Of a stretch of DNA of 12,470 bases, positions 310-12,470 are shown piece after piece. Made by a program: the position numbers and the translations under genes. Each line of letters starts with the position of its first letter. Positions within the stretch are counted from its first letter, which is position 1. The stretch comes from Promethearchaeota archaeon (GTDB lineage Archaea; Asgardarchaeota; Lokiarchaeia; Sigyniarchaeales; SOKP01): contig JBHLME010000131.1 of NCBI GenBank assembly GCA_048938445.1, positions 1 to 12,470 on the forward strand. The letters run 5' to 3'. Below the pieces are notes generated by a model that was given only the letters and a program-made list of their open reading frames with translations, ran no database searches and was not told the DNA's origin.

Positions 310-1539
310 ATGCAATCAATTCAGTTTTTCGTCAATTTATTTAGTCTAATAATTGGATATTTTTTAGGATCTATTTTACCAGCATATTTTTTTGGTAAGT
401 TAAAAGGTATGGATATCAGAGAAGAAGGTACTCGTAATGCTGGAACTACAAATGCATTTCACGTATTAGGTCTTACATATGCCATTCCAACAGCATTTTA
501 TGATACTTTAAAAGGATTATTTGCAATGCTCATTGCGTACTTTTTAGGTGCGGATTTCTTCTTTGTACAACTAACTGGAATTTTAGTAATTATAGGACAC
601 GTGTTTCCATTTTATATTAATTTTCGTGGAGGTCAAGGTGTTGCTACTGCAACAGGAATTATCCTTTATTATCTATGGATTTATATTTTTAGTGGATTAG
701 GATTAGAAATTTTTTTTGCTATCGGATTTTGTATAATAATCGTGATAATTTTTACATATATAACAAAAATGGGGAGTATTTTACCGATTTTAGTATTTCC
801 GATTCTTGATTTTTCATTATTTGTCTTTTATCCCGAATTGTTGATATATAATTTGTTTTTTACTTTAGTAAGCTTGCATATAATGATTATTGGACTTTAC
901 AAAATTATCACTGAAAAAAAAATAAAAATAGAAGACGAGACATTTTTGTCCCACTGGTGGCGTGTTGCAATAAGACCCCTTGCAATATTATTTATTATTT
1001 TTTATTTTATTATGGGTAAAGGTTTTGCTATAGTCCTCGTTGGTTTGGTCGTCTGTGTTTTTTTGATAATTGATATAACTAGAATCCTTCATAAACGCAC
1101 CAATGAGCTACTTACACAAAGAATTAAGTATATATTTAAGAAAACTGAAGAAAAAAGATTTTCATCAATGACAATCTTTTTGATTGCAACTTTTTTTTCA
1201 ATTCTGTTATTTCAGGAAAATATTGCAATAACAGCTGTGGTTTTTCTCATTTTTGGAGATATATTCAGTAAAATATTTGGCTTGTCTTTTGGACGTCATA
1301 AATTATTTGAAAAAACAGTTGAAGGAACACTAGCTTTTTTTGGAAGTGTCTTGATTAGTGGATATTTTATTTATTTTTCTCTATTACCCACCGAATATAT
1401 TATTTCACTATTAGTTTTATTTTTTGGAGGGCTTATGGCACCAATAGCAGAAATTATTCCAATTGACATTAATGATAATTTTACAATTCCGATATTAAGC
1501 GGAGCAACTATGTTTGTGGCAGTATTTTTTGGATTATAA
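310..1539 (+). CDS. plsY: Membrane protein: PlsY-family glycerol-3-phosphate acyltransferase fused to a C-terminal CTP-dependent kinase domain (phytol/dolichol/DAG kinase; VTE5/Sec59/Dgk1-like)
   Basis: The N-terminal half has the PlsY motifs GYFLGSI..DIREEGTRNAGTTN, DTLKG and GHVFP..FRGGQGVAT. The C-terminal half has GDIFSKIFG..FGRHK..EKTVEGT and DNFTIP, typical of the CTP-transferase-like kinase family. Hydrophobic throughout. Confidence 0.85.
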   Translation: MQSIQFFVNLFSLIIGYFLGSILPAYFFGKLKGMDIREEGTRNAGTTNAFHVLGLTYAIPTAFYDTLKGLFAMLIAYFLGADFFFVQLTGILVIIGHVFPFYINFRGGQGVATATGIILYYLWIYIFSGLGLEIFFAIGFCIIIVIIFTYITKMGSILPILVFPILDFSLFVFYPELLIYNLFFTLVSLHIMIIGLYKIITEKKIKIEDETFLSHWWRVAIRPLAILFIIFYFIMGKGFAIVLVGLVVCVFLIIDITRILHKRTNELLTQRIKYIFKKTEEKRFSSMTIFLIATFFSILLFQENIAITAVVFLIFGDIFSKIFGLSFGRHKLFEKTVEGTLAFFGSVLISGYFIYFSLLPTEYIISLLVLFFGGLMAPIAEIIPIDINDNFTIPILSGATMFVAVFFGL

Positions 1540-2162: not shown

Positions 2163-2618
2163 TCAATAAATACCATTATTTTGTTTCTGTTTAATAGGTT
2201 TGAGGACAACGCAAACACGCTCAACACTCTTTACATCACTGCGTCCTCTAAAATTTTCTAATAATGCATCTAGTTCGGTAATTTCTGGAACACGGACTTT
2301 AATCAACACGCCACATTGTCCTGCCAAGAAATATACTTCTTCGCATTGAGGAATGATTTGAGCTTCCCGTAAAAGATCCTTAATTTGAGTTTCTTCCGTG
2401 GGCATAACGGTTACAAATGCCATTATTCCAGAATCTTCCTCTCGACATACCTTGATCGTGAATTTTTCGATAACGTTATCCTCTTGGAGCCTAATAACTC
2501 GTTTTCGAACAGTTGATTCGCTCAATCCAATCTCATCTGCAATTTCGCGATAAGGTCTTCTTGAATCTTCTATCAGCATTTCTAATATTCTTTTATCCTT
2601 TTCATCCATATTTTTCAT
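2163..2618 (-). CDS. Lrp/AsnC family transcriptional regulator
   Basis: MDEKDKRILEMLIEDSRRPYREIADEIGLSESTVRKRVIRLQEDNVI is a classic AsnC-type HTH, followed by a RAM-domain-sized C-terminus. The start may instead be the second Met (2609). Confidence 0.93.
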   Translation of the reverse strand: MKNMDEKDKRILEMLIEDSRRPYREIADEIGLSESTVRKRVIRLQEDNVIEKFTIKVCREEDSGIMAFVTVMPTEETQIKDLLREAQIIPQCEEVYFLAGQCGVLIKVRVPEITELDALLENFRGRSDVKSVERVCVVLKPIKQKQNNGIY

Positions 2619-2702: not shown

Positions 2703-3671
2703 TTAATAAAAGTCTTTTGCATATTCAGGGTAATCTCCTAATAATGGAGCAAATAGTCTCTCGTATTCTACTGCCATGCAATGTACTCCACTTGCTTTTG
2801 AGTTCTCCTTAATCTCCTTAATGAAAGGTTTAAAGAATTCAACGTTTACTTTATCTAGTGCAGCATATTTTGCCTTTTTATCTCCTTTATTTTCCTTCTC
2901 TGCTGTTTTGAGTGCTTTAAGTAATTCTTTGGGCACGCTTACACCAGGAATATAGTTGTCAAAATACCAAGCTATTCCATGGCTTTTCATGGGAAATACT
3001 CCTAACAGTATTGGCACGTTAAATCTAGATAATTCCTTTATGAATTCTTTTGCTACATCAATATCGAATGCTGTTTGTGTCTGAATGAAGTCAATACCCT
3101 GTTCGACTTTTCTTCCCACTTTAAGGATTTCAGGTTCCATGAATTCTCCCATTGCATTCGGATTCGCGACACAACCATAATTCATCTCAACCTTGCCCCC
3201 AGTTATCTCGTTGCCTTCGTAATCAGTACCTTCATCAATAATTTTTGATAGGAGTTCACAGAACTGAGTGCTATCAATATCATAAGAGGGACGAGCTTTC
3301 TTGTTATCTCCTAGAGCGGTATGATCTCCTGTTAATACGAGAATGTTTTTTAATCCCATATATGCTCCAGCAATCACATCTCCAAATAATGCAACTCGAT
3401 TGCGATCTCTCACAGCTACTTGCCAAACTGCTTCAATTTTAGCATCTCTCTGAACTACATAACTTGGAACTAAAGAAGACATGTATGCATCTCCTTGAGG
3501 TCCATCAGTTACGTTAGCAGCAATTATTCGATTAGTTTTCTTCATTTCTTTGGCAGAATGAATGATTTCAGTCATGTCCATTATTTTCTTAGGTTCGAGC
3601 TCTCCTGTGAATACAAAATGTCCTGCTTCGAGTGCTTTACATAATTTACTATATGCTGGTCGTTTAGGCAT
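2703..3671 (-). CDS. metF: Methylenetetrahydrofolate reductase, flavin-binding subunit
   Basis: Motifs FTGELEP, NVTD, VRDRNR, LVLTGD, FIQTQ..FD and GVHCM. Start revised from 3704 to ATG 3671 (MPKRPAYS): it follows the metV stop as TAA-A-ATG and has GGAGG at 3684-3688. The MRKKRRRRR extension is only the alternative frame of the metV tail. Confidence 0.92.
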   Translation of the reverse strand: MPKRPAYSKLCKALEAGHFVFTGELEPKKIMDMTEIIHSAKEMKKTNRIIAANVTDGPQGDAYMSSLVPSYVVQRDAKIEAVWQVAVRDRNRVALFGDVIAGAYMGLKNILVLTGDHTALGDNKKARPSYDIDSTQFCELLSKIIDEGTDYEGNEITGGKVEMNYGCVANPNAMGEFMEPEILKVGRKVEQGIDFIQTQTAFDIDVAKEFIKELSRFNVPILLGVFPMKSHGIAWYFDNYIPGVSVPKELLKALKTAEKENKGDKKAKYAALDKVNVEFFKPFIKEIKENSKASGVHCMAVEYERLFAPLLGDYPEYAKDFY

Positions 3672-3672
3672 T

Positions 3673-4368
3673 TTATTTCTTCTCCTCCTTCTTTTCTTCC
3701 TCATTAGTGAGTGGTTTATTTATTTGAATATAGGCAGGACTCGTAGCTGATCGATAATCTCGTGCGGGACGATAAACCTTGAATAGATCTAGCCTATTAA
3801 ATTTCTTTAATCTCTTGTAGATCTCTATCCACGCACAAGGATTTTTATAACCGCCAACTTCACACATTCCGTCGACAGTTCCTCCACAAGGTCCATTATT
3901 CAAATGCTTCGCACATCCAGCAATGGGACAAACACCTCCAGTTACTCCTAATAAACAATTTCCACACGTTTCACAGTATTGAATGAAGTTGTTTTCACCA
4001 TTATTTTGCACTCCACCAAATTGGCTATTTTGTGCTGGAAATGTTAAAATCTTATCAGCAACTTTATTGAGCATCACGACTCCCAGACCACAAGCTAATG
4101 ATAAAATTGCTTCATATTCGTCGGTAAATGGTCTTACTGTAGTTGCAGCAATCCTGTCATCACATTGTCTTAAAACAGTGATAGCTTTCCAAGTTAGCTT
4201 TTTGCCCTCAGTTTGATATTTTAATTCTAGGAGCTGTCCAAGAACAATAGCCTCATTGATCGAGCGTGGCGGCTGGCAACAACCATCACAACCCGCGATG
4301 AGAATCTTTTTGTAGTCTTTCACCATTGCGTATAGTTCGTTTATATCTTTTTGTTGCGTAATTATCAT
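3673..4368 (-). CDS. metV: Methylenetetrahydrofolate reductase Fe-S/Zn subunit (MTHFR C-terminal domain protein)
   Basis: GCDGC, RQCD, ACGLG, CETCGNC, CPIAGCAKHLNNGPCGG..C..CAWIEIYKRL. Lies directly upstream of metF; GGAG at 4379-4382. Confidence 0.9.
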   Translation of the reverse strand: MIITQQKDINELYAMVKDYKKILIAGCDGCCQPPRSINEAIVLGQLLELKYQTEGKKLTWKAITVLRQCDDRIAATTVRPFTDEYEAILSLACGLGVVMLNKVADKILTFPAQNSQFGGVQNNGENNFIQYCETCGNCLLGVTGGVCPIAGCAKHLNNGPCGGTVDGMCEVGGYKNPCAWIEIYKRLKKFNRLDLFKVYRPARDYRSATSPAYIQINKPLTNEEEKKEEKK

Positions 4369-4453
4369 ATTACTTTTTCTCCAATTTTTTCATTTTTTTT
4401 TAAATTATTTTGATTAAATTTCCTTTATCATATATTTTTCAAAAAGTTATTAT

Positions 4454-5335
4454 TTAAGTAGTTAATTTTTCAATTAGTTTATCTGGTTTCACGCTTCTTT
4501 GCTTTAAATTTATATCTTCGAGAGATACACCTAAAGCAATTGCCATTATTTCTGGTAGATAAATTACAGGTATATCCAAATCTTTACCTGTCTTTCTTGC
4601 AATTACTTTCTCCTTTCTATCATATTGTGTCACACATGCTGGACAAACAGCTATTAACGCATCAATATCTTCTTCAAGTTCGCATAATTCCGTCATTTTA
4701 TCTTCTACTAATTTCTCACCAATTTCATCTTGTAAGCGGGCACAATAACCACAACATTCAAGTTTATTAGCAAAATCAACTGTTTTAGCACCTAATGCTT
4801 TTAGGATTACATCTATCCTTTCAGGCTTTTCAGGATGGTCAAATTGCATGATTTTACTAGGTCGGACGAGATGACATCCATAATGGACAGCAAAGGTAAA
4901 ATCGTCTAATGGCTTTACAAGTGATTTTTTAATTTTTTCCAGCCATTCAGGTTGACTGAATAATTCTACCATATGGACAACTTTAGTAGTTCCCTTATAT
5001 TCATAGTTTATTTTCTTCAATATTTCATTGATCTTCTTCTTATGTTCTGGATCTTCTTCTAATAAAACACTAACGGTTTTTAGTGTTTCATAACATCCTG
5101 AACAAATTGTCATTACATCATTCCCCATTTTTTCGGCTATTGCTAAATTCCTTGCGCCAAGTGTTAACCACGTGTCTATATTTAGAGATTGTAAGGATAC
5201 GGGTTCCGGACAGCAGCTCACTCCTTCCATCTCCTTTAGATTTATACCTAAAACGCTTGAAACCTCTCGAAATGCTTTTTCTAGGTAAGGTTGCTTTAAT
5301 GGGATATTACATCCTAAAAATATTGCAAAATCCAT
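4454..5335 (-). CDS. hdrB: Heterodisulfide reductase subunit B family protein
   Basis: Two CCG motifs: FLGC..SCCP..CSGC and HYGCH..ECCG..CPAC. The start overlaps the hdrC stop (TAATG). Confidence 0.95.
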   Translation of the reverse strand: MDFAIFLGCNIPLKQPYLEKAFREVSSVLGINLKEMEGVSCCPEPVSLQSLNIDTWLTLGARNLAIAEKMGNDVMTICSGCYETLKTVSVLLEEDPEHKKKINEILKKINYEYKGTTKVVHMVELFSQPEWLEKIKKSLVKPLDDFTFAVHYGCHLVRPSKIMQFDHPEKPERIDVILKALGAKTVDFANKLECCGYCARLQDEIGEKLVEDKMTELCELEEDIDALIAVCPACVTQYDRKEKVIARKTGKDLDIPVIYLPEIMAIALGVSLEDINLKQRSVKPDKLIEKLTT

Positions 5336-5868
5336 TATTTAATCTCCTCCACTTTTTTTAATAATTCTTTCAAACCAGTTTCTTCAAATATGAATTGTAT
5401 TTCATCAAGTTTTGGACCGATTACTTCGGGTAATCCTAACCTTTCTCGTCGTTTGTCAATATTTTTTTTCATTCCTTCTGTATAAGGAATTACAAAGCCA
5501 TTCTCGAGAATAGTTATCACGCTACTAGAGTATTCTTTTGGAATTTTACCTTCTTGTGCAGCCATGCTTCGCAATAAAGCAAGAATAAATGAATAATCTA
5601 CATTTTTTGGACATCGCTCTGTACATCTATGACATAAGGAACAAGTCCAGATTGCTTGACTTGATAGCACTTCTTCTTTAAGTCCTAACAAGCAAGATGC
5701 GACAACCCGATGAGGTTGTAAGTCTACATATTCAGTAACCGTGCATCCAGAACTACACACTCCACATTGAATACATTTAAGCAGCGATTTTGCACCCACT
5801 TTCTGGCTTATTTCGTATCTAAAATTCTTGTCCAACTCACTCGCTTTTTTTGCTAATCTTTGGGTCAT
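5335..5868 (-). CDS. hdrC: Heterodisulfide reductase subunit C
   Basis: Two 4Fe-4S motifs, CIQCGVCSSGC and IWTCSLCHRCTERCP, plus the C-terminal 'RRERLGLP'. Lies between hdrA and hdrB. Confidence 0.95.
   Translation of the reverse strand: MTQRLAKKASELDKNFRYEISQKVGAKSLLKCIQCGVCSSGCTVTEYVDLQPHRVVASCLLGLKEEVLSSQAIWTCSLCHRCTERCPKNVDYSFILALLRSMAAQEGKIPKEYSSSVITILENGFVIPYTEGMKKNIDKRRERLGLPEVIGPKLDEIQFIFEETGLKELLKKVEEIK
5344..5350 (-). promoter_or_regulatory. Shine-Dalgarno site for hdrB
   Basis: GGAGGAG 8 nt upstream of ATG 5335, inside the last codons of hdrC. Confidence 0.7.
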
Positions 5869-5870
5869 TT

Positions 5871-8800
5871 TTATGCCACCTCCTTTGCTTTGATAATTTT
5901 ATCACCTTTTTTAGTTCTTGGTCCTAATTCTTTAACCTTTTCAACAAATTCGGTTACTACTTGGGAAAATCGTTTTCCTTCACTTGCAGACACCCATTCA
6001 AGGCGATATCGTTCAGGATTAATTCCCACTTTATGAAGTATATCCTTTAACTCATTGTACCTATTTAACATGTCATAATTTCCTTCTAAATAGTGGCAAT
6101 CTCCAATATGACAACCTCCAATAAAAACACCATCTGCTCCTTCTAAAAATGCTTGTAAGATGAAGCTTTTTGGAATTCTACCTGTACACATTACTCGTAT
6201 CGGTCTTATATTCGTAGGATATTGGAATCTGCTTACACCACACGTATCTGCTCCCGCATAACTACACCAATTGCATAAAAATGCAACTATACGCGGTCTT
6301 TCATCCACATAATCACCTTTAACTGCTTCAGCAATCATTGGATAAATTTGTTCATCAGCAAAATGGCTCATAGTAATTGCACCTGCTGGACACGCAGCGG
6401 CGCAATCACCACATCCCTTGCACAATAGTGGATTGGATTCTGAGACTAAGACCTCATTATCGAAATTTACTCCAATTGCTCCAAAGTTACATACTTTTTC
6501 ACATTCTTGACATGCAATACATAAAGCTGGATTAACTACTGAAACCAATGGTTCATTCTCAACTTCACCTGAAATGAGTGGTATTAATGCATGTGCAGCA
6601 GCTCCCCTCGCTTGTGAAATGGAATCTGCAATGCCTTTTGGCCCATGACAAGTGCCTGCCAGATATATTCCATCTGTGGCAAAATCAACAGGTCTTAGCT
6701 TGACATGTGCTTCCAAGAAGAATCCTTTCTGGTCACGAGCACATTTTATTAATTCTCCTAATAATTTGGTATCATGAGGAACTAATGGAGTAGAAAGGAC
6801 TACTTTATCAGCATCGATCGTCAAGTCAACTTGTGTCAAAATATCAGTAACTTTCACTGATAATTTTCCATTTTTTTTCTCTACTTTAGGATATTCATTG
6901 AATCTGATATAATTAACGTTTTCCCTGGCTTTCCAATAGTATTGCTCTTCATCTGCTCCTACTCTAATATCACGGTATAAAACAAAAATATTAGAATTTG
7001 GATAGTTCTCTTTTACATAAAGAGCATGTCTTATCGATTCAGAACAACAAATTAATGAACAATAAGTAAAACCATTTCCTCCTTCGGGCTGCCTTGAACC
7101 AACGCAGTGAATGAAAACAAGCGTTTCTCCATCTTTAAGTTTATTGTCTCTTAGCTTTTCTGAAAATTCAAGTTGGGTCATCACCTTGTCGCTCATTCCC
7201 TTCTCGCCATAGTAATACCATCCCTCTGGTTTATACTCATAAGCTCCAGTTGCCACCACGATTACACCGACATTCAAATCTATATCTTTCTCTTTATTTT
7301 TTACCTTTATCTTGAAATCCCCAATCGATCCTTTAACATCAACCACTTCAGAATTAAGATAAGTCACTATATTTTTATGAGCATTAAATTCATTTATTTT
7401 TTCTTCCAGAAATTGTTTAGAATCAATTTTATCGAAGTTAATCTTATAAATTAGATTTAATTGTCCACCTAATTTATCTTTATTTTCCACCAAGTGAACT
7501 TTGAATCCCTTATTAGCAATTTCAATAGCCGAGCTAATTCCAGTAATTCCTCCTCCTATAACGAGAGCTTCCGGTACAACATTACCTTTAATTTTTATTT
7601 CTGGTTTTTGATATTGCACACGTGCAACTCCCATCCTTATGAGATCTTTTGCTTTATCAGTGGCTCTTTTATTATCATGCATGTGTACCCAGGAGTCTAA
7701 TTCCCTGATGCTTACGAAATTAAATAAATACTCATTCAAGCCTGCCTCTCTGATCGTCTTTTGAAAGAGTGGTTCATGAGTTCTTGGAGTACATGCCGCT
7801 ACAACAATTCTATTTAAGTCAAGCTCTTCTATTTTTTCTTTTATGATATCTTGGGTTAATTGAGAACAGCTATATTTATTTTCCATGCTATAAACCACAT
7901 TAGGAAGGGTTTTAGAATACTCTACCAATTCTGGAACATCCATATAACCAGCAATATTAATTCCACACCTACAAATAAATACGCCTATTCTTGGTTCATC
8001 AAGAGGATTAACTATTTTCAAAGGTGGGAGTTCTACCTTTGTTTCTTCATCGCTTAGTGGTACTGCATGAGTTGCAGCTAATGCTGCAGCACCTCCTGCT
8101 TTCGCAACAGAATTAGCGATATCATCTGGAGATTGACAAGATCCAGAAACATATATACCTTCTTGTGTGGATCTTAAATCTTCCGTTGAATCCTTAGTCT
8201 TAAAAAATCCTAATTCATTCGTTTCAATGTTTAGAATTTTAGCTAATTTATCCGCATCTTTTCTAGGAGTCACGGCATTCGCAAGTACAACTAAATCAAA
8301 TTCACTAACTTCAACATCACCCGTGTCTAAGTTAGCATGTTTAACAAATAGGTTTTTATTTTCTGTATTTTCTCTAATATCACCTGGTATTCCCCTATAA
8401 TAGGTGAGACCATATTCCTCTTTAGCTCGCTCAATAAATTCTTCTTGATTTTTTCCTATAACCCGAATGTCATTGAAAAAGATCGTAACACTTGTATCAG
8501 GTGCATGTTCTCGCGTTATTACTCCTTCCTTAGTTTGGTACATGCAACAAAATTTTGAACAATAAGCACATAAGTCTTCATTTCTAGAGCCTACACAACT
8601 AATAAATGCTATATTATGTGCATGTTCACCATCTGAAGGACGCAATAATTCTCCCCCAGTGGGACCAGAGGCACTTAACAACCGTTCATATTGCATTGCT
8701 GTAATTACATTAGGATATTCTCCATAATGATACCTGTCTAATAATGAAGCATCGAGTTGATCGAATCCAGTAGCAACAATAATTGATGCGATATCGTATT

Positions 8801-9350
8801 CTATCACTTCATCTTTATCATCCCAGTTTATTGCACCAGCTTCACATTCTTTCTCACATAATTTACAAGCATTCTTGGTAAGATAAAGGCATTTTTCAGC
8901 ATCTATAACTGCTTTTCTTGGAACTGCTTGAGGAAATGGAATATATATTGCTTGTCGATTACCCATGCCTTCTTCAAATTCATTAGGGATTTTCTTCATT
9001 GGACATTTTTCACTACAAGCACCACACCCAGTACAAGCATCCCAATTAACATATTTTGCTTTTTTCCTAATTTTAACCTTGAAATCTCCTGCCTTTCCCT
9101 TGACTTCTTGTACTTCAGAATAAGCAAGAAGTTCAATGTTAGGATGTCTACTTGATTCTACCATCTTTGGTGCTAAAATACAAATAGAACAGTCTAAAGT
9201 AGGAAATGTCTTGTCTAATTGTGCCATTCTCCCTCCTACCGAAGAAGTTTGTTCAACAAGTATGACTCGGTATCCCTGATCCGCTAAAGTGAGACTAGCT
9301 TCAATACCGCTAATCCCCCCCCCAATTACCATTATATTACTACTTGTCAT
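5871..9350 (-). CDS. hdrA: Heterodisulfide reductase subunit A-like polyprotein: two tandem HdrA FAD modules plus C-terminal ferredoxin and a fused MvhD [2Fe-2S] domain
   Basis: Module 1: GGGISG, GGRMAQLDKTFPTLDCSIC, inserted ferredoxin, CVGSR..YCSKFCC. Module 2 from about aa 452: RIGVFICRCG, AACTP, GGGITG, CVGSR..YCSLICC, CIACQECEKVC/CKGCGDCAAACP. MvhD from about aa 1018: FLCNWCSYAGAD, RVMCTGR, GCHIGDCHY. Confidence 0.95.
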   Translation of the reverse strand: MTSSNIMVIGGGISGIEASLTLADQGYRVILVEQTSSVGGRMAQLDKTFPTLDCSICILAPKMVESSRHPNIELLAYSEVQEVKGKAGDFKVKIRKKAKYVNWDACTGCGACSEKCPMKKIPNEFEEGMGNRQAIYIPFPQAVPRKAVIDAEKCLYLTKNACKLCEKECEAGAINWDDKDEVIEYDIASIIVATGFDQLDASLLDRYHYGEYPNVITAMQYERLLSASGPTGGELLRPSDGEHAHNIAFISCVGSRNEDLCAYCSKFCCMYQTKEGVITREHAPDTSVTIFFNDIRVIGKNQEEFIERAKEEYGLTYYRGIPGDIRENTENKNLFVKHANLDTGDVEVSEFDLVVLANAVTPRKDADKLAKILNIETNELGFFKTKDSTEDLRSTQEGIYVSGSCQSPDDIANSVAKAGGAAALAATHAVPLSDEETKVELPPLKIVNPLDEPRIGVFICRCGINIAGYMDVPELVEYSKTLPNVVYSMENKYSCSQLTQDIIKEKIEELDLNRIVVAACTPRTHEPLFQKTIREAGLNEYLFNFVSIRELDSWVHMHDNKRATDKAKDLIRMGVARVQYQKPEIKIKGNVVPEALVIGGGITGISSAIEIANKGFKVHLVENKDKLGGQLNLIYKINFDKIDSKQFLEEKINEFNAHKNIVTYLNSEVVDVKGSIGDFKIKVKNKEKDIDLNVGVIVVATGAYEYKPEGWYYYGEKGMSDKVMTQLEFSEKLRDNKLKDGETLVFIHCVGSRQPEGGNGFTYCSLICCSESIRHALYVKENYPNSNIFVLYRDIRVGADEEQYYWKARENVNYIRFNEYPKVEKKNGKLSVKVTDILTQVDLTIDADKVVLSTPLVPHDTKLLGELIKCARDQKGFFLEAHVKLRPVDFATDGIYLAGTCHGPKGIADSISQARGAAAHALIPLISGEVENEPLVSVVNPALCIACQECEKVCNFGAIGVNFDNEVLVSESNPLLCKGCGDCAAACPAGAITMSHFADEQIYPMIAEAVKGDYVDERPRIVAFLCNWCSYAGADTCGVSRFQYPTNIRPIRVMCTGRIPKSFILQAFLEGADGVFIGGCHIGDCHYLEGNYDMLNRYNELKDILHKVGINPERYRLEWVSASEGKRFSQVVTEFVEKVKELGPRTKKGDKIIKAKEVA
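5877..5883 (-). promoter_or_regulatory. Shine-Dalgarno site for hdrC
   Basis: GGAGGTG 8 nt upstream of ATG 5868, encoded by the final K-E-V codons of hdrA. Confidence 0.75.
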
Positions 9351-9826
9351 TTTTTTTCCTTTTTTTTATTATATATTGGATTCATTTTTTCGTAATTTTT
9401 AAAAAACAAAAACTATTCAAATAAATGGTTTATGATTTTAAAAATTAAACAATTTTTTTAGTATATTTACGACTTTTTACCTTAAAAATGTTATCACTTT
9501 TTATCATTTTCAGTCATTAGTGATCCAAATTTATCAATAAATGTTAATATTTGATCATACACTTTGCTCTCAATTCTCAAATAACGAAATTTCAGAGTAA
9601 TTTTTCCGTCAAAAAAAAATCATTAGAAAAAAAAATAGTCAATTCTCCTTATAAATATTTTTATCTTTCGCTTAAAAAATTATATCATAATAATAAATTG
9701 TTTTTATATTTGGTATTCGTTTATATTAATCATCTCTTGTCATATCAATTTTTAAATTGTTCTAAATATTTATTAATAAGTTTAGTCAATATGGAATTAA
9801 TAACTAATGAATTTAGATGTTAAAAT
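9351..9826. promoter_or_regulatory. Divergent AT-rich intergenic region carrying the promoters of the hdr-met cluster (-) and the GTPase gene (+)
   Basis: 476 nt between divergent start codons at 9350 and 9827. Very AT-rich with several TATA-like octamers; individual boxes cannot be assigned. Confidence 0.7.
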
Positions 9827-10507
9827 ATGAAAATTGTAGTAACTGGTGCACTTCATTCGGGTAAATCTAGCTATGTAAAATATTTTGATACAAAAGCAAT
9901 GAATATTGAAGCGGCTGGAAGTGATAAGAAGTTCTATACCGTAGGAATGGATTTAGCCACTTTTCAAATAGAAGCCTTTAAAATATTCTTATTTGGAACT
10001 CCTGGATTACTAAGAATGCAAATAATGAGAGACGTCATTGCTGATGGGGCAGATGGTGTGATTTTTTTACTTGATTCAACTCGTCCTGAAAGTGATGAAG
10101 ATGCAATGCTGATACTACATTCTTTAAAAGAACACATCCCTCCGGATATTCCTATTATTTTTTGTGCTAATAAACAAGATGAACAATCTGCTCGCTCTTC
10201 TGAACAAGTTAAAGCTCAAAATCAGCTCCCTGATAATGCAAAAATATTTCCTATTAGCGTTAAGAACAGATTAAATATGAATGAATCACTCAAGTATATA
10301 GTAAATCTTGTTTTTGAGAAATATGAAGATATTCTTGAAATTCTTCGCAAATATGAAGATGATCTTGAGGGATTAGGAAAACAATTAAACATGAATACTG
10401 AAGAATTACAAGAATACCTTCGTTCTCTTGAGATAAAGAGATTTATTACTATTGATAGAGAAAATAAAACTATCGAGGTCATAGAAGGATTAAAAAAACT
10501 AATTTAA
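9827..10507 (+). CDS. Small Ras-superfamily GTPase (MglA/CvnD-like G3) with probable C-terminal winged-helix extension
   Basis: G1 GALHSGKS, G2 TVGMD, G3 FGTPG, G4 NKQD, G5 ISVK. The last ~60 aa (LEGLGKQLNMNTEELQEYLRSLEIKRFITIDRENKTIEV) have an HTH plus beta-hairpin pattern. Confidence 0.88.
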   Translation: MKIVVTGALHSGKSSYVKYFDTKAMNIEAAGSDKKFYTVGMDLATFQIEAFKIFLFGTPGLLRMQIMRDVIADGADGVIFLLDSTRPESDEDAMLILHSLKEHIPPDIPIIFCANKQDEQSARSSEQVKAQNQLPDNAKIFPISVKNRLNMNESLKYIVNLVFEKYEDILEILRKYEDDLEGLGKQLNMNTEELQEYLRSLEIKRFITIDRENKTIEVIEGLKKLI

Positions 10508-11793: not shown

Positions 11794-12470
11794 TTGACTT
11801 ATTTCGATAAAAAAAAGCTTCAAGCCCTTTTGAAATGGTATAAACAAGAGGTAGGAATAGATCTCATTGCAGTTCTAGTTGTTGATAGGACTGGTTTAGT
11901 TGTCGATTTTTTAACTAAAATTCCCGAAAAAGCAGATGAAAAAAAATTTATTGGAGCATTTAGCGCATTAGCTGATCTAATTCTTAAAAAAATAACATCA
12001 GATTATGATTTAGGAACTTTTGGAGCGGGAACTTTTGACACTGATCAGTATCGATTTATATTTTGCGAAGCTGGACCTGAATTTGTGTTTGTAACTGTGT
12101 TAAATGCACTTTCTACAATTGATCCATACTTCCCCTATGCGTTTATAGGGGCTGAGAAAATAGCTCGTATTTTTGATGGGCGTCCTGTAAGTCCCGTAAT
12201 CCCAAAAATTAAGACAGATTATGGAATAAAAAAAATGCATAGAAAAATTGACATGCTCCAAAAAGTAAAGTTTGTTTCTGACGATTATCTATGTAAACTC
12301 AGTTTTATAGGAGATAATGGTGTAGGAAAGACCAGTATCGTCCAACGTTATGTGAACAATATTTTCCACTTGGATTACCGTGCAACGATAGGAGCTTTCA
12401 TTACGAAGAAGATATGTAAATTTGAAGGACTTGCTGATACCCAAGTGCGTTTCGTGATTTGGGATATTGC
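11794..12470 (+). CDS. Roadblock/LAMTOR-like domain fused to a Rab-like small GTPase; partial, runs off the window
   Basis: Not in the ORF track. The frame is open from 11731 to the window end; likely TTG start at 11794 with AGGT at 11781-11784. Translation: MTYFDKKKLQALLKWYKQEVGIDLIAVLVVDRTGLVVDF..FIGAFSALADLILKKI..RFIFCEAGPEFVFVTV (Roadblock pattern), then YLCKLSFIGDNGVGKTSIVQRYVNNIFHLDYRATIGAFI..VRFVIWDI (G1, G2 and start of G3). Confidence 0.9.
   Translation, partial: MTYFDKKKLQALLKWYKQEVGIDLIAVLVVDRTGLVVDFLTKIPEKADEKKFIGAFSALADLILKKITSDYDLGTFGAGTFDTDQYRFIFCEAGPEFVFVTVLNALSTIDPYFPYAFIGAEKIARIFDGRPVSPVIPKIKTDYGIKKMHRKIDMLQKVKFVSDDYLCKLSFIGDNGVGKTSIVQRYVNNIFHLDYRATIGAFITKKICKFEGLADTQVRFVIWDI

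Follow-up and report, generated by a model that had tools for sequence, protein, structure and literature searches.

A conserved hdr-metVF gene cluster of Lokiarchaeia with a tandem HdrA and a candidate role in H4MPT-linked methylene-pterin reduction

Within the window, the whole 12,470-nt stretch of Promethearchaeota DNA analysed here, positions 2703-9350 hold five minus-strand genes in the order hdrA-mvhD (fused), hdrC, hdrB, metV and metF (Table 1). On the minus strand, the hdrC ATG comes 2 nt after the hdrA stop, and TAATG contains both the end of hdrC and the beginning of hdrB. A spacer of 85 nt then separates hdrB from the metV ATG, and 1 nt past the metV stop there is a further ATG, at 3671. 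The ORF listing and strand read thus agree with a first-pass annotation of this DNA, which gave five co-directional genes with gaps of 2, -1, 85 and 1 nt. Its strong internal Shine-Dalgarno sites hold for hdrC, hdrB and metF, preceded by AAGGAGGTGG, GTGGAGGAG and AAGGAGGAG, respectively, but not for metV, which has a weaker GGAG; a weaker AGGA precedes hdrA. The longest metF reading frame starts at 3704 and runs into metV. The ATG at 3671 is the likely start, however, because AGGAGG lies closely upstream and orthologues in most loci align from residue 1. Co-transcription and translational coupling are plausible within hdrA-hdrC-hdrB and within metV-metF. The cluster has small GTPase and RING genes as neighbours, and the named MetF relatives are from Promethearchaeia or Lokiarchaeota, in keeping with the Asgard host proposed at first pass.

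Table 1 Coordinates of the cluster and adjoining features in the window
Feature	Position	Strand	Basis or detail
Upstream intergenic region	9351..9826	-	between hdrA and divergent GTPase gene, common to both
hdrA-mvhD ORF	9350..5871	-	1159 aa, ORF listing
hdrA module 1, aa 1-449	8004..9350	-	residues 5-376 = 5odc_A 145-511, 413.9 bits
hdrA linker, aa ~450-590	7581..8003	-	residues 450-616 = 5odc_A 1-167, 188.8 bits
hdrA module 2, aa ~591-935	6546..7580	-	module 1 vs module 2 alignment; Pyr_redox_2/FAD stretches
hdrA C-terminal 2x[4Fe-4S] ferredoxin domain, aa ~936-1010, C944-C987	6321..6545	-	residues 873-1006 = 5odc_A 513-646
Fused MvhD, aa ~1011-1159, [2Fe-2S] type	5871..6320	-	FlpD 2e-52 at 1021-1143; MvhD chains, e.g. 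8rvu_F 7.7e-52
hdrC ORF	5868..5335	-	177 aa, ORF listing
hdrB ORF	5335..4454	-	293 aa, ORF listing
hdrB-metV spacer, 85 nt, AT-rich	4369..4453	-	T5 run about 12 nt past hdrB stop
metV ORF	4368..3673	-	231 aa, ORF listing
metF longest ORF	3704..2703	-	ORF listing
metF, 322 aa, MTHFR-family TIM barrel	2703..3671	-	MTHFR 1e-23; start choice from orthologues
Lrp/AsnC-family regulator, 151 aa	2163..2618	-	HTH_AsnC-type 4.9e-16, AsnC_trans_reg 3.8e-7

A run of T5-T9 occupies the same position in nearly all of 15 hdrB-metV spacers from the locus family f1. This run is possibly an attenuator or terminator, or functionless, and the 85 nt could give room for a separate metVF promoter; in two other Asgard loci (G037 and G169) the spacer is just 20-44 nt. 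No RNA run was found to contain the locus. Conserved ~110-200 nt 5' of the hdrA ATG are a pair of repeats containing GATCA and an element resembling TTTAAG/TTTATAT, with the ATC of the first GATCA and adjoining columns invariant in an alignment of 9 upstream regions. We consider these blocks a candidate promoter/operator. The Lrp/AsnC gene lies directly downstream in 19 of the 20 family loci (the remaining one ends at a contig edge), and its product is a candidate regulator of the cluster.

HdrA had been taken for a plain HdrA-MvhD fusion. We found instead two HdrA modules in tandem, with complementary parts, ahead of the fused MvhD, as indicated by both structure matches and an internal duplication (28% identity over 279 aa, E 6e-27, the alignment skipping module 1 residues 103-177). 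The protein matches Pfam FlpD/MvhD (2e-52), Pyr_redox_2 (2.9e-24) and several Fer4 families, with two Pyr_redox_2 and FAD stretches. It passes NCBIfam HdrA2 (1189.7 bits, cut-off 1100) and matches 5odc_A in three stretches (overall E 3.3e-209). Module 1 lacks the HdrA N-terminal domain; its FAD domain is thioredoxin-reductase-like, and it has a DCSIC motif (C54 and C57, the latter at the alignment position of M. wolfeii Cys197), a 2x[4Fe-4S] ferredoxin domain as an insert (C106-C169) and the cluster motif C252/C264/C268/C269. The linker is the HdrA N-terminal [4Fe-4S] domain (C460, C462, C495, C520) and belongs to module 2, whose second FAD domain (GGGITG) retains C749/C764/C768/C769; comparison with module 1 showed both the DCSIC motif and the inserted ferredoxin domain to be missing from it. 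Residues C1026, C1029, C1055, C1080 and C1085 of the MvhD domain are invariant, as are the cysteines named above for module 1 and the linker; across 22 aligned tandem HdrA proteins all 35 cluster cysteines are invariant. Judged by its sequence, HdrA is a single-chain pseudo-heterodimer; a two-module HdrA is likewise described in literature on the enzymes of Moorella and Sporomusa. HdrA lacks a GltD-like NAD(P)H insert, as had been noted from the outset: the sole GltD-like NCBIfam match, NF009410, reached 57.7 bits (cut-off 516) and is confined to a Rossmann stretch.

Clear family matches assign all five cluster proteins. HdrC has two CxxCxxCxxxC motifs (C32-C42 and C76-C86) and matches Pfam Fer4_8 (9.7e-11) and 5odc_C (E 1.6e-21), with 95 bits to NCBIfam TIGR03290, below the cut-off of 160. 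In HdrB both CCG motifs are intact (C9, C41, C42, C78, C81; C154, C194, C195, C231, C234); it matches Pfam CCG in two stretches (3.5e-24) and methanogen HdrB 8rvu_b end to end (1.4e-68), with 274 bits to TIGR03288, below the cut-off of 345. The two CCG motifs retained by HdrB are those of the disulfide-reducing site; HdrC retains both clusters. MetV matches Pfam DUF5981 (3e-28). Across 30 aligned MetVs, its N-terminal alpha/beta domain (modelled at pLDDT 75-95) has four invariant cysteines (C27, C30, C69, C93) and its C-terminal DUF5981 domain eight (C132-C178). MetF matches Pfam MTHFR (1e-23), the reductase part of PRK08645 (2.9e-49) and, weakly, solved MTHFRs (E about 2e-4). In two of ten long metagenomic forms of MetF relatives scanned, the protein was joined to CdhD, the corrinoid subunit of CODH/ACS.

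As the first-pass annotation had stated, these are the subunits described for the Hdr-type methylene-THF reductase of Moorella thermoacetica and Sporomusa ovata (PMC9430772, PMC9012536), and the same kind of MetF/MetV-Hdr cluster is already known in acetogenic bacteria. The gene order departs from that of the bacterial clusters, and MvhD is fused here; both points had been noted at first pass. The linkage recurs in relatives: 15 of the 20 family-f1 loci are complete in the same order, four are colinear but cut at contig ends, and one (G010) has the tandem hdrA directly before metV. Among 20 further Asgard loci, hdr genes adjoin metV(F) in five, which show three different gene orders and represent four other families (G037; G168 and G169; G308; G397), and metVF stands alone in 11. 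In the MetV tree, a 100/98 branch separates five stand-alone MetVs from 24 that are Hdr-adjacent and a further one with hdr genes 3 kb off. Hdr-linked MetVs thus form one supported clade, and they carry their own N-domain motif. Both the synteny survey and the tree, proposed as checks at first pass, came out on the side of linkage. The cluster assignment is far above chance.

We modelled MetV with HdrA residues 585-1159, alongside three controls. The MetV-HdrA models scored 0.70, 0.70 and 0.72 and the best control 0.00; of 80 solved complexes 58 attain the score mark, as do 2 of 110 mismatched pairs. At least 95% of contacts are common to the runs, with partner pLDDT of at least 84. Contacts involve the HdrA ferredoxin domain (945-949, 987-990), MvhD (1060-1069, 1104-1110, 1147-1149) and MetV N-domain residues 8-10, 28-55 and 64. 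We found no MetV relatives in the PDB, so the MetV side of the model does not reproduce a known complex structure. The model places the MetV N-domain, with its four invariant cysteines, on the MvhD/C-terminal ferredoxin arm, and this arm is probably taken by MetFV itself, not by a hydrogenase in trans. The earlier proposal of a trans-encoded hydrogenase or formate dehydrogenase on MvhD is thereby weakened, as it is by the host genome's 14 MvhD domains and its [NiFe] hydrogenase genes, which an MvhD-bearing protein of their own adjoins. A second tandem HdrA-MvhD, on contig C4, lies beside two FrhB/FdhB-like genes and an HdrD-like gene. S. ovata pull-downs had MetV binding HdrA and MetF, not HdrB, and MvhD binding HdrA, HdrB and MetF (PMC9430772).

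Profile searches of the host genome (96.5% complete), using family cut-offs, found the H4MPT-branch genes Mch, Ftr (two copies), Mtd and FwdA (776 bits, above cut-off), CdhC of CODH/ACS, and CofH for F420 (463 bits) and RFAP synthase (319 bits), both above cut-off, as well as FolD and SHMT. In the same genome Fhs and McrA had no match, DsrC was not found, and the best Mer match was 72 bits against a cut-off of 349. The presence of Fwd, Ftr, Mch, Mtd, CdhC, CofH and RFAP synthase without Mer or Fhs argues for methylene-H4MPT, not folate, as substrate, and the lack of Fhs means that there is no complete folate methyl branch. The folate-based step first proposed is thus disfavoured, and the substrate pair is most likely methylene-/methyl-H4MPT. 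The proposal that Hdr serves C1 metabolism here fared better, since without McrA a role in CoM-S-S-CoB reduction is unlikely. The cluster probably covers the missing step of the archaeal carbon-fixation pathway. Among 161 genomes of the class, 6 have a Mer match above cut-off, and these include none from the host's order. Nonetheless, the cluster cannot be regarded as a plain stand-in for Mer, since the host has a second, stand-alone-type metVF (contig C214), the four genomes of genus g4 lack Mer and have only stand-alone-type metVF, and G168 and G169 hold Mer and the Hdr-metVF cluster together.

In methanogen Mvh-Hdr the MvhD arm carries the hydrogenase, which suggests MetFV as the two-electron (hydride-side) module of flavin-based bifurcation or confurcation. 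On balance we lean slightly towards a complex of MetF-MetV-HdrC-HdrB-HdrA(tandem)-MvhD, an Hdr-type, H4MPT-linked methylene-pterin reductase with MetFV on the MvhD arm, for which we infer substrate, reaction direction and HdrB partner. By sequence, HdrA module 1 contributes an FAD site, the equivalent of Cys197, the ferredoxin-reducing insert and one cluster motif on the HdrC side, and module 2 contributes the N-terminal cluster domain, a second FAD site and cluster motif, the C-terminal ferredoxin domain and the fused MvhD. Electrons would pass from the MetF flavin through the MetV clusters and the MvhD [2Fe-2S] cluster to the HdrA FAD, and from there both to ferredoxin via the inserted domain and, via HdrC, to a thiol/disulfide couple at HdrB. 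The methylene-/methyl-H4MPT potential is about -320 mV, midway between ferredoxin and a disulfide, as is F420 for M. acetivorans HdrA2B2C2. Hdr coupling is not obligatory for MetVF enzymes: that of S. ovata can be purified free of Hdr, and reduced ferredoxin then suffices for it to reduce methylene-THF (PMC9430772).

Alternatively, the enzyme could be folate-dependent and of the acetogen type, with electrons delivered by a trans-docked hydrogenase or formate dehydrogenase on MvhD and bifurcated to ferredoxin and, via HdrCB, to MetVF. Methylene-THF, at -200 mV, would be the high-potential acceptor. This scheme has been proposed for the identical Moorella/Sporomusa subunit set (PMC9430772, PMC6085437) and is thermodynamically favourable with THF (H2 to methylene-THF, -41 kJ/mol; PMC9430772). 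Although FolD, SHMT and [NiFe] hydrogenase genes are in the host genome, we regard it as unlikely given an H4MPT branch complete save Mer, the missing Fhs, the modelled position of MetV, the MvhD fusions at the hydrogenase genes themselves and, in S. ovata, the failure of MetV to pull down HdrB (PMC9430772).

Less probable still are two separate enzymes under shared regulation, forming no complex: a soluble, HdrA2B2C2-like HdrA(tandem)-MvhD/HdrCB disulfide reductase and an independent, ferredoxin-dependent MetVF. Linkage kept through three gene orders and four other families argues against this, as do the separate clade of Hdr-linked MetVs with its motif at the modelled interface, the short spacers of G037 and G169, and a docking model that beats its controls. 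It would, however, account for the conserved T-run past hdrB, the passing of the HdrA2 cut-off, the frequency of stand-alone metVF in Asgard genomes and the S. ovata and C. ljungdahlii MetVFs that work alone with reduced ferredoxin (PMC9430772, PMC8515935, PMC8760232). Finally, an anabolic rather than catabolic Wood-Ljungdahl role, with methyl-pterin made for methionine or cofactor synthesis under an amino-acid-sensing Lrp/AsnC neighbour, fits the retention of that gene and the view of Methanosarcinaceae MetFV as anabolic (PMC9012536), but is very improbable, since a bifurcation scaffold with seven clusters and two flavins would be an unusual cost for a biosynthetic trickle, some MetF relatives are fused to CdhD, and the host genome encodes CODH/ACS.

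There is good evidence, in gene order, for the hdr and met genes of the window forming a functional unit, because the hdr-metV linkage survives rearrangement across families. The five genes are co-directional, as the first-pass annotation had read them, and both the ORFs and their junctions bear this out: the junctions measure 2, -1 (a TAATG overlap), 85 and 1 nt, the last value assuming that metF begins at the ATG at 3671. This ATG has AAGGAGGAG upstream, and the orthologues from most loci align from residue 1. Shine-Dalgarno-like motifs are good before hdrC, hdrB and metF and weaker before metV and hdrA.

Features of the window and of other loci discussed in the text (cluster genes as in the ORF list; G000 is the window's own genome and G168 another Asgard genome)
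Feature	Location	Strand	Remarks
hdrA (with MvhD)	window 9350..5871	-	1159 aa
hdrC	window 5868..5335	-	177 aa
hdrB	window 5335..4454	-	293 aa
metV	window 4368..3673	-	231 aa
metF ORF	window 3704..2703	-	likely start at ATG 3671
Lrp/AsnC regulator	window 2163-2618
Conserved blocks upstream of hdrA	window 9465-9560
Ras/Arf-like small GTPase	window 9827-10507
Protein with weak Prok-RING/PHD matches	window 10592-11680		matches below cut-off
Protein starting a Roc/Ras GTPase domain	window 11794-12468		domain at residues 168-225; cut by window end
PlsY-type membrane protein	window 310-1539		409 aa; glycerol-3-phosphate acyltransferase domain at residues 15-189 (1.8e-34)
Second metV-metF (L066)	G000 C214:61993-65251		stand-alone type
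mvhA-like and mvhG-like genes	G000 C214:49402-54002		about 10 kb from the second metVF
Second tandem hdrA-mvhD locus (L067)	G000 C4:5639-15207		tandem HdrA-MvhD at 11728-15207, 1159 aa
gcvH locus (L088)	G000 C108:577-2013
Mer and tandem hdrA-metV-metF (L070)	G168 C3:26000-44500		Mer at 390 bits

A synteny survey of Asgard archaea found the linkage of metVF to hdr, proposed from the window alone, to be kept in relatives. We compared the 20 best MetV orthologues of the window's family, f1, all at least 68% identical and from genomes other than G000. The window's order, tandem hdrA-mvhD, hdrC, hdrB, metV and metF, was complete at 15 of these 20 loci, and four more were colinear until cut by a contig end. 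At the remaining locus, in G010, the tandem hdrA immediately precedes metV, and additional copies of hdrA and hdrB lie upstream. A gene for an Lrp/AsnC regulator follows metF at 19 of the 20, and the last locus ends with its contig. A MetV homologue (E ≤ 1e-10) was present in 213 genomes of a 400-genome sample of the phylum, and orthologues of at least 64% identity occurred, by count of the matches listed, in 110 of 135 f1 genomes. Twenty further Asgard loci were drawn from more distant MetV matches. Here hdr genes adjoin metV(F) at five, in three gene orders: the window's order is kept in G037 and G169, and the genes run hdrA-metV-metF in G168, metV-hdrA-hdrC-hdrB in G308 and metV-metF-hdrA-hdrC-hdrB in G397. 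Four of the distant loci, all from family f19, have divergent hdrA genes about 3 kb away, accompanied in two by mvhD and mvhG matches, and at the other 11 no hdr genes were found near metV within the span examined.

The two kinds of MetV also separate by sequence. In a midpoint-rooted tree of 30 selected MetV sequences, among which kin are not independent, 24 Hdr-adjacent sequences and one from f19 fall on one side of a 100/98 branch, and five stand-alone MetVs on the opposite side. The window's MetV belongs to the Hdr-linked clade, and a second MetV of G000, on contig C214, to the stand-alone clade.

The first gene had been described as a fusion of HdrA with MvhD. The fused MvhD stands, but the HdrA part is not a plain HdrA: matches to the solved M. 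wolfeii HdrA (5odc_A, overall E 3.3e-209) and an alignment of the protein to itself reveal a tandem of two modules. Three pieces match the solved enzyme. Residues 5-376 correspond to 5odc_A 145-511 and make up an FAD/TrxR-like domain into which a ferredoxin domain is inserted; residues 450-616 correspond to 1-167 and comprise the N-terminal cluster domain, after which a second FAD domain begins; and residues 873-1006 correspond to 513-646, where that FAD domain ends and the C-terminal ferredoxin domain follows. MvhD chains are matched by residues 1018-1149 (e.g., 8rvu_F, 7.7e-52), and Pfam places an MvhD/FlpD domain (2e-52) at the C-terminus. The FAD parts of modules 1 and 2 are 28% identical over 279 aa (E 6e-27), in an alignment that skips the inserted ferredoxin domain of module 1. 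Thus the window HdrA has both an extra TrxR-like module and a C-terminal module without an inserted ferredoxin domain. Module 1 lacks the N-terminal domain and keeps DCSIC, its C57 aligning with Cys197 of the solved enzyme. The GGGIxG FAD motif and the CVGSR...C..CC cluster motif occur in both modules, all 35 presumed cluster cysteines of the tandem HdrA are invariant in a 22-protein alignment, and the inserted ferredoxin domain of module 1 has eight invariant cysteines. The protein does not reach the NCBIfam HdrA equivalog (779.7 bits, cut-off 1400) and passes only the HdrA2 "exception" model, its best match, at 1189.7 against 1100, a score raised by the tandem. The absence of a GltD-like NAD(P)H insert, noted at first from the sequence, was upheld by Pfam and NCBIfam (GltD-like NF009410 at 57.7 bits against a cut-off of 516).

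HdrB has two CCG domains, scores below the TIGR03288 cut-off (1.2e-81; 274.1 against 345.15 bits) and can be aligned over its full length with solved methanogen HdrB (8rvu_b, 1.4e-68). Its disulfide-reducing site looks intact, since both CX31-39CCX35CXXC motifs are kept (C9/41/42/78/81 and C154/194/195/231/234). HdrC is a two-cluster ferredoxin, below the TIGR03290 cut-off (3e-27; 95.4 against 160 bits), with both four-Cys motifs kept. Pfam assigns DUF5981 to MetV (3e-28) and MTHFR to metF (1e-23). Twelve cysteines of MetV are invariant among 30 sequences, four in the N-terminal alpha/beta domain and eight in DUF5981. No relative of MetV was found in the PDB by sequence at E ≤ 1. Its AlphaFold2 model (mean pLDDT 71.5) is good for the N-domain and poor for the Cys-rich C-domain, and a Foldseek comparison with the PDB gave no match at E ≤ 0.001, only generic Rossmann-like alpha/beta folds that do not inform on function. 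MetF matches solved MTHFRs weakly (E about 2e-4).

An Hdr-type methylene-THF reductase, MetFV-HdrABC-MvhD, was reportedly described in Moorella thermoacetica by Mock et al. in 2014. According to PMC9430772 and PMC9012536, that enzyme shares with the window six protein modules in one cluster, and bifurcation was proposed for it. Its HdrA likewise has two TrxR-like modules, the C-terminal one without an inserted ferredoxin domain, but it is 1487 aa long, includes a GltD-type NAD(P)H domain and works with NADH (PMC9430772), whereas the window HdrA has no such domain. Compared by description, Moorella further has a separate mvhD gene, another gene order and a folate pathway with Fhs (formate-THF ligase), whereas MvhD is fused in the window. 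The Sporomusa ovata complex, HdrCBA-MvhD-MetVF (Kremp, Roth and Mueller 2022), resembles the window in its two-module HdrA without GltD and in having hdr upstream of metV-metF. By the description available in PMC9430772, its 942-aa HdrA has no inserted ferredoxin domain, whereas module 1 of the window keeps one, and the complex is loosely membrane-attached and cytochrome/quinone-linked, whereas the window encodes nothing of that kind. The window HdrA therefore follows the Moorella/Sporomusa plan and differs in three respects: no GltD, a ferredoxin domain kept in module 1, and a fused MvhD.

Other systems share parts of this layout. The solved chains of methanogen MvhAGD-HdrABC (5ODC, 8RVU, 7BKB) can be aligned with module 1 and with the N-terminal and C-terminal ferredoxin domains of the window HdrA, as well as with its MvhD and with HdrB and HdrC, and the cluster ligands and both CCG motifs are all kept. 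However, the window encodes one fused, asymmetric HdrA chain instead of a homodimer and MetFV where the hydrogenase would be, and its HdrA, HdrB and HdrC all fall below the NCBIfam cut-offs for the methanogen-type HdrABC equivalogs. HdrA2B2C2 of Methanosarcina acetivorans also has an HdrA-MvhD fusion and bifurcates electrons from a mid-potential hydride donor to ferredoxin and a disulfide, but its HdrA2 is a single module (777-position model), not a tandem, the donor is F420H2 and there is no MetFV link (Yan, Wang and Ferry 2017, PMC5296606). Chadwick et al. (2022, PMC9012536) described MetFV-HdrA-MvhD clusters of Ca. Syntrophoarchaeum and the fused HdrA3/HdrA4 of ANME; these archaea have no Mer (the F420-dependent methylene-H4MPT reductase), and H4MPT was proposed as the substrate of their MetF. 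Compared by description, the N-terminal module of HdrA3/4 has the N-terminal domain and lacks Cys197, the reverse of the order in the window. Complementary module loss is described for fused or paired ANME HdrAs and for the Moorella enzyme in the same source.

The first-pass annotation called the system acetogen-type. This holds for the class of enzyme but not for MetF itself. In a library clustered at 50%, the nearest full-length MetF representatives outside the window's own cluster are 44-47% identical; two of those clusters have named members, Bathyarchaeota/Hecatellales in one and Lokiarchaeota in the other, and the next named group, clostridial, is at 36%. By these identities the window MetF belongs in an archaeal MetFV clade, which agrees with Chadwick et al., who place Asgard MetF in the ANME-1 MetF clade (PMC9012536). 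Its best 120 relatives are all close Lokiarchaeia-type proteins of at least 78% identity, and close relatives are by name MAG proteins of Promethearchaeia, Lokiarchaeota or Thorarchaeota. These names, with the Ras/Arf/Roc-type GTPases and the RING/PHD-like protein in the window, support the assignment to an Asgard host. Ten long MetF representatives were also scanned for fusions: three were MetV-MetF, two MetF-CdhD, one each MetF-FolD, MetF-response regulator and homocysteine-methyltransferase-MetF, and two had no second domain; none of the ten was fused to Hdr. The MetF-CdhD fusions tie this MetF group to CODH/ACS. They are the metagenomic proteins P0151 and P0184, CdhD being the CODH/ACS corrinoid subunit, and one of the two also has TPR repeats.

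We sought the C1 pathway that the cluster would serve in the G000 assembly (4.63 Mb in 256 contigs, 96.5% complete, 8.2% contaminated, contig GC 24 to 34%). FwdA (776 bits, cut-off 393), two Ftr, Mch and CdhC are present, and an F420-dependent Mtd adjoins Ftr. CofH (463 against 374) was also detected, as was beta-RFAP synthase (319 against 114), whose model also matches Haloferax and Sulfolobus and so marks archaeal pterin synthesis broadly. FolD, SHMT, GcvH and an MptE-like gene are present, and neither Fhs nor an MCR_alpha match for McrA was found in this 96.5% complete genome. No Mer exceeded the cut-off in G000 (best 72 bits against 349). In the class, Mer passed in 6 of 161 genomes, all six in families f5-f7, outside the window's order; within the order it passed in none of 154 genomes (0/135 f1 including G000, 0/14 f2, 0/1 f3 and 0/4 f4). 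Judged by gene content, the encoded methyl branch is of the H4MPT type, with exactly the Mer step open. As this branch is complete except for Mer, methylene-H4MPT is probably the substrate in preference to folate. The folate-based step originally proposed is less favoured, with no Fhs in G000 and with Fwd, Ftr, Mch and Mtd of the H4MPT branch present. MetF acting on H4MPT has been proposed for ANME-1 and Ca. Syntrophoarchaeum (PMC9012536).

The cluster, occurring in about 110 of 135 f1 genomes within an order where none of 154 genomes has a Mer above the cut-off, is a strong candidate for the lacking methylene-to-methyl step and for linking that step to ferredoxin. It is nevertheless not simply "the" Mer substitute, because another metVF pair, with about 39% identity to that of the window, is encoded on C214 of G000, because four genomes of genus g4 have no Mer and only the C214-type metVF, and because Mer and the Hdr-metVF cluster coexist in G168 and G169. 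In G168, a bona fide Mer lies about 4 kb upstream of the tandem hdrA-metV-metF. In archaeal Wood-Ljungdahl pathways it is Mer, a member of a different protein family, that catalyses the reaction proposed here. The ferredoxin-dependent MetVF-type methylene-THF reductase of Clostridium ljungdahlii and others shares the MetV+MetF core, but is stand-alone, whereas the window's MetV falls in a separate Hdr-linked clade and has linked hdr genes.

How MetFV might engage HdrA was addressed by docking MetV against HdrA 585-1159 (module 2, the C-terminal ferredoxin domain and MvhD), the input alignments having 22 and 30 rows. The runs scored 0.70, 0.70 and 0.72, against 0.00 for the best of three controls; in calibration, 58 of 80 solved complexes attain the mark, as do 2 of 110 mismatched pairs, counts that are rough for custom alignments such as these. 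At least 95% of contacts agreed between runs, with partner pLDDT of at least 84. The model supports binding of MetV to the MvhD/C-terminal ferredoxin arm, as predicted with only the C-terminal half of HdrA on offer. It agrees with S. ovata pull-downs, in which MetV bound HdrA and not HdrB (PMC9430772), and is in line with the comment in PMC6085437 that metF, metV and mvhD often lie together even where hdrABC lies elsewhere. In the modelled interface, MetV 8-10, 28-55 and 64 contact HdrA 945-949 and 987-990, beside the C-terminal ferredoxin ligands, and the same MetV residues contact MvhD 1060-1069, 1104-1110 and 1147-1149. On the MetV side this stretch belongs to the N-domain, next to C27/C30, and contains the sequence CCQPPR, which is characteristic of Hdr-linked MetVs of the f1/f2/f7 type. 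The model thus predicts a concrete, testable docking site, with the N-domain of MetV on MvhD and the C-terminal ferredoxin domain.

In methanogen Mvh-Hdr the hydrogenase sits on that arm, as known from the 5ODC work. If MetFV took its place, it would act as two-electron partner to the bifurcating flavin, while ferredoxin would be served by the ferredoxin domain inserted in module 1 and some thiol/disulfide couple by HdrC-HdrB. The methylene/methyl-H4MPT couple lies at about -320 mV, ferredoxin at about -450 to -500 mV and heterodisulfide-type couples at about -140 mV. Because of these potentials, the H4MPT couple would suit the middle position, like F420H2 in HdrA2B2C2. Methylene-THF, at -200 mV with H2 at -414 mV (PMC9430772), would be better suited to the scheme proposed first, as a high-potential acceptor. 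We offer only tentatively, as a possibility we think somewhat doubtful, that MetFV plugs in like a hydrogenase at the MvhD arm, on an HdrA that is asymmetric and a single chain, to give a methyl-H4MPT:ferredoxin/disulfide bifurcating or confurcating oxidoreductase. If so, the methylene/methyl step would be wired directly to the ferredoxin pool and a thiol/disulfide carrier, a new energy-coupling site bearing on the redox balance of hydrogen- and syntrophy-dependent relatives of eukaryotes. As for the carrier, CoM-S-S-CoB is an unlikely substrate of HdrB because G000 has no Mcr, and DsrC, also considered, had no match in G000. GcvH, a lipoyl carrier, as the HdrB substrate is speculation. The sole GcvH gene of G000 lies beside the MptE-like pterin diphosphokinase gene and not beside hdr or gcv genes.

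The modular Hdr inventory of G000 fits such a plug-in picture, because the genome has 14 MvhD/FlpD matches, a second tandem HdrA-MvhD, and [NiFe] hydrogenase genes that adjoin an MvhD-bearing fusion of their own. The second tandem HdrA-MvhD, on contig C4, is preceded by an HdrD-like CCG+Fer4 protein together with two FrhB/FdhB-like ones; judged by its genes, this locus resembles an Hdr module that parallels the window's but has another kind of input module. Upstream in it are an mvhD with two in-frame TGA codons and an hdrA interrupted by a stop codon that may encode selenocysteine. Four of the 14 MvhD/FlpD matches have two in-frame TGA codons each, which suggests selenocysteine-containing MvhD/VhuD-type proteins. 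On C214, the second metV-metF is convergent with an HdrC-like gene and an ORF for a C-terminal HdrA fragment, and the mvhA-like and mvhG-like genes have as neighbour the gene for an 848-aa protein in which an HTH-like DUF7347, an HdrA-like FAD domain, ferredoxin clusters and MvhD occur together.

No description of an Hdr-metVF cluster in Asgard archaea was found in searches on Asgard/Lokiarchaeia MetF, MTHFR, Mer and Hdr, subscription papers and supplements apart, and the available text of PMC9012536 does not describe one. In earlier work, metF was noted in cultured Lokiarchaeia and an archaeal Wood-Ljungdahl pathway without Fhs was inferred for the Asgard ancestor (PMC12222021), and Asgard MTHFR was treated as a sporadic folate gene (PMC9931769). 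We place the cluster among the known Hdr-type methylene-pterin reductases; it is distinguished by the layout of its HdrA and by a substrate that is probably H4MPT, and is not a new kind of system. It can be seen as a compact, NADH-independent version of the acetogens' Hdr-type reductase, and its asymmetric single-chain HdrA could make the structure and mechanism of flavin-based bifurcation easier to study. The operation and energetics of the Asgard Wood-Ljungdahl pathway are central to hydrogen- and syntrophy-lifestyle models, and hence to eukaryogenesis scenarios; a cluster that is real and widespread in this key lineage gives a testable handle on Asgard C1 energetics.

Transcription of the cluster was considered from its non-coding stretches. 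A T5 run lies in the hdrB-metV spacer, about 12 nt past the hdrB stop, and runs of T5-T9 occupy the same place in nearly all of 15 f1 spacers compared. An oligo-T terminator or attenuator of the archaeal kind could account for this, or it may be simply AT-rich spacer. No conserved promoter-like block was seen in the 15 spacers, and the spacer is shorter elsewhere (44 nt in G169, 20 nt in G037). Conserved blocks, two GATCA-containing repeats among them, occur upstream of hdrA in nine relatives, and the Lrp/AsnC regulator that is conserved downstream may use these blocks as its operator. An Rfam scan of the window gave nothing at gathering score, and a search for sequencing runs holding the locus listed 12 DNA runs from six studies and no RNA run.

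In many relatives, too, the genes for the Ras/Arf-like GTPase and the RING/PHD-like protein are found next to hdrA. At the other end of the window, the hydrophobic C-terminal half (about 220 aa) of the PlsY-type protein has no Pfam match; the gene itself is a bacterial-type lipid gene in an archaeon.
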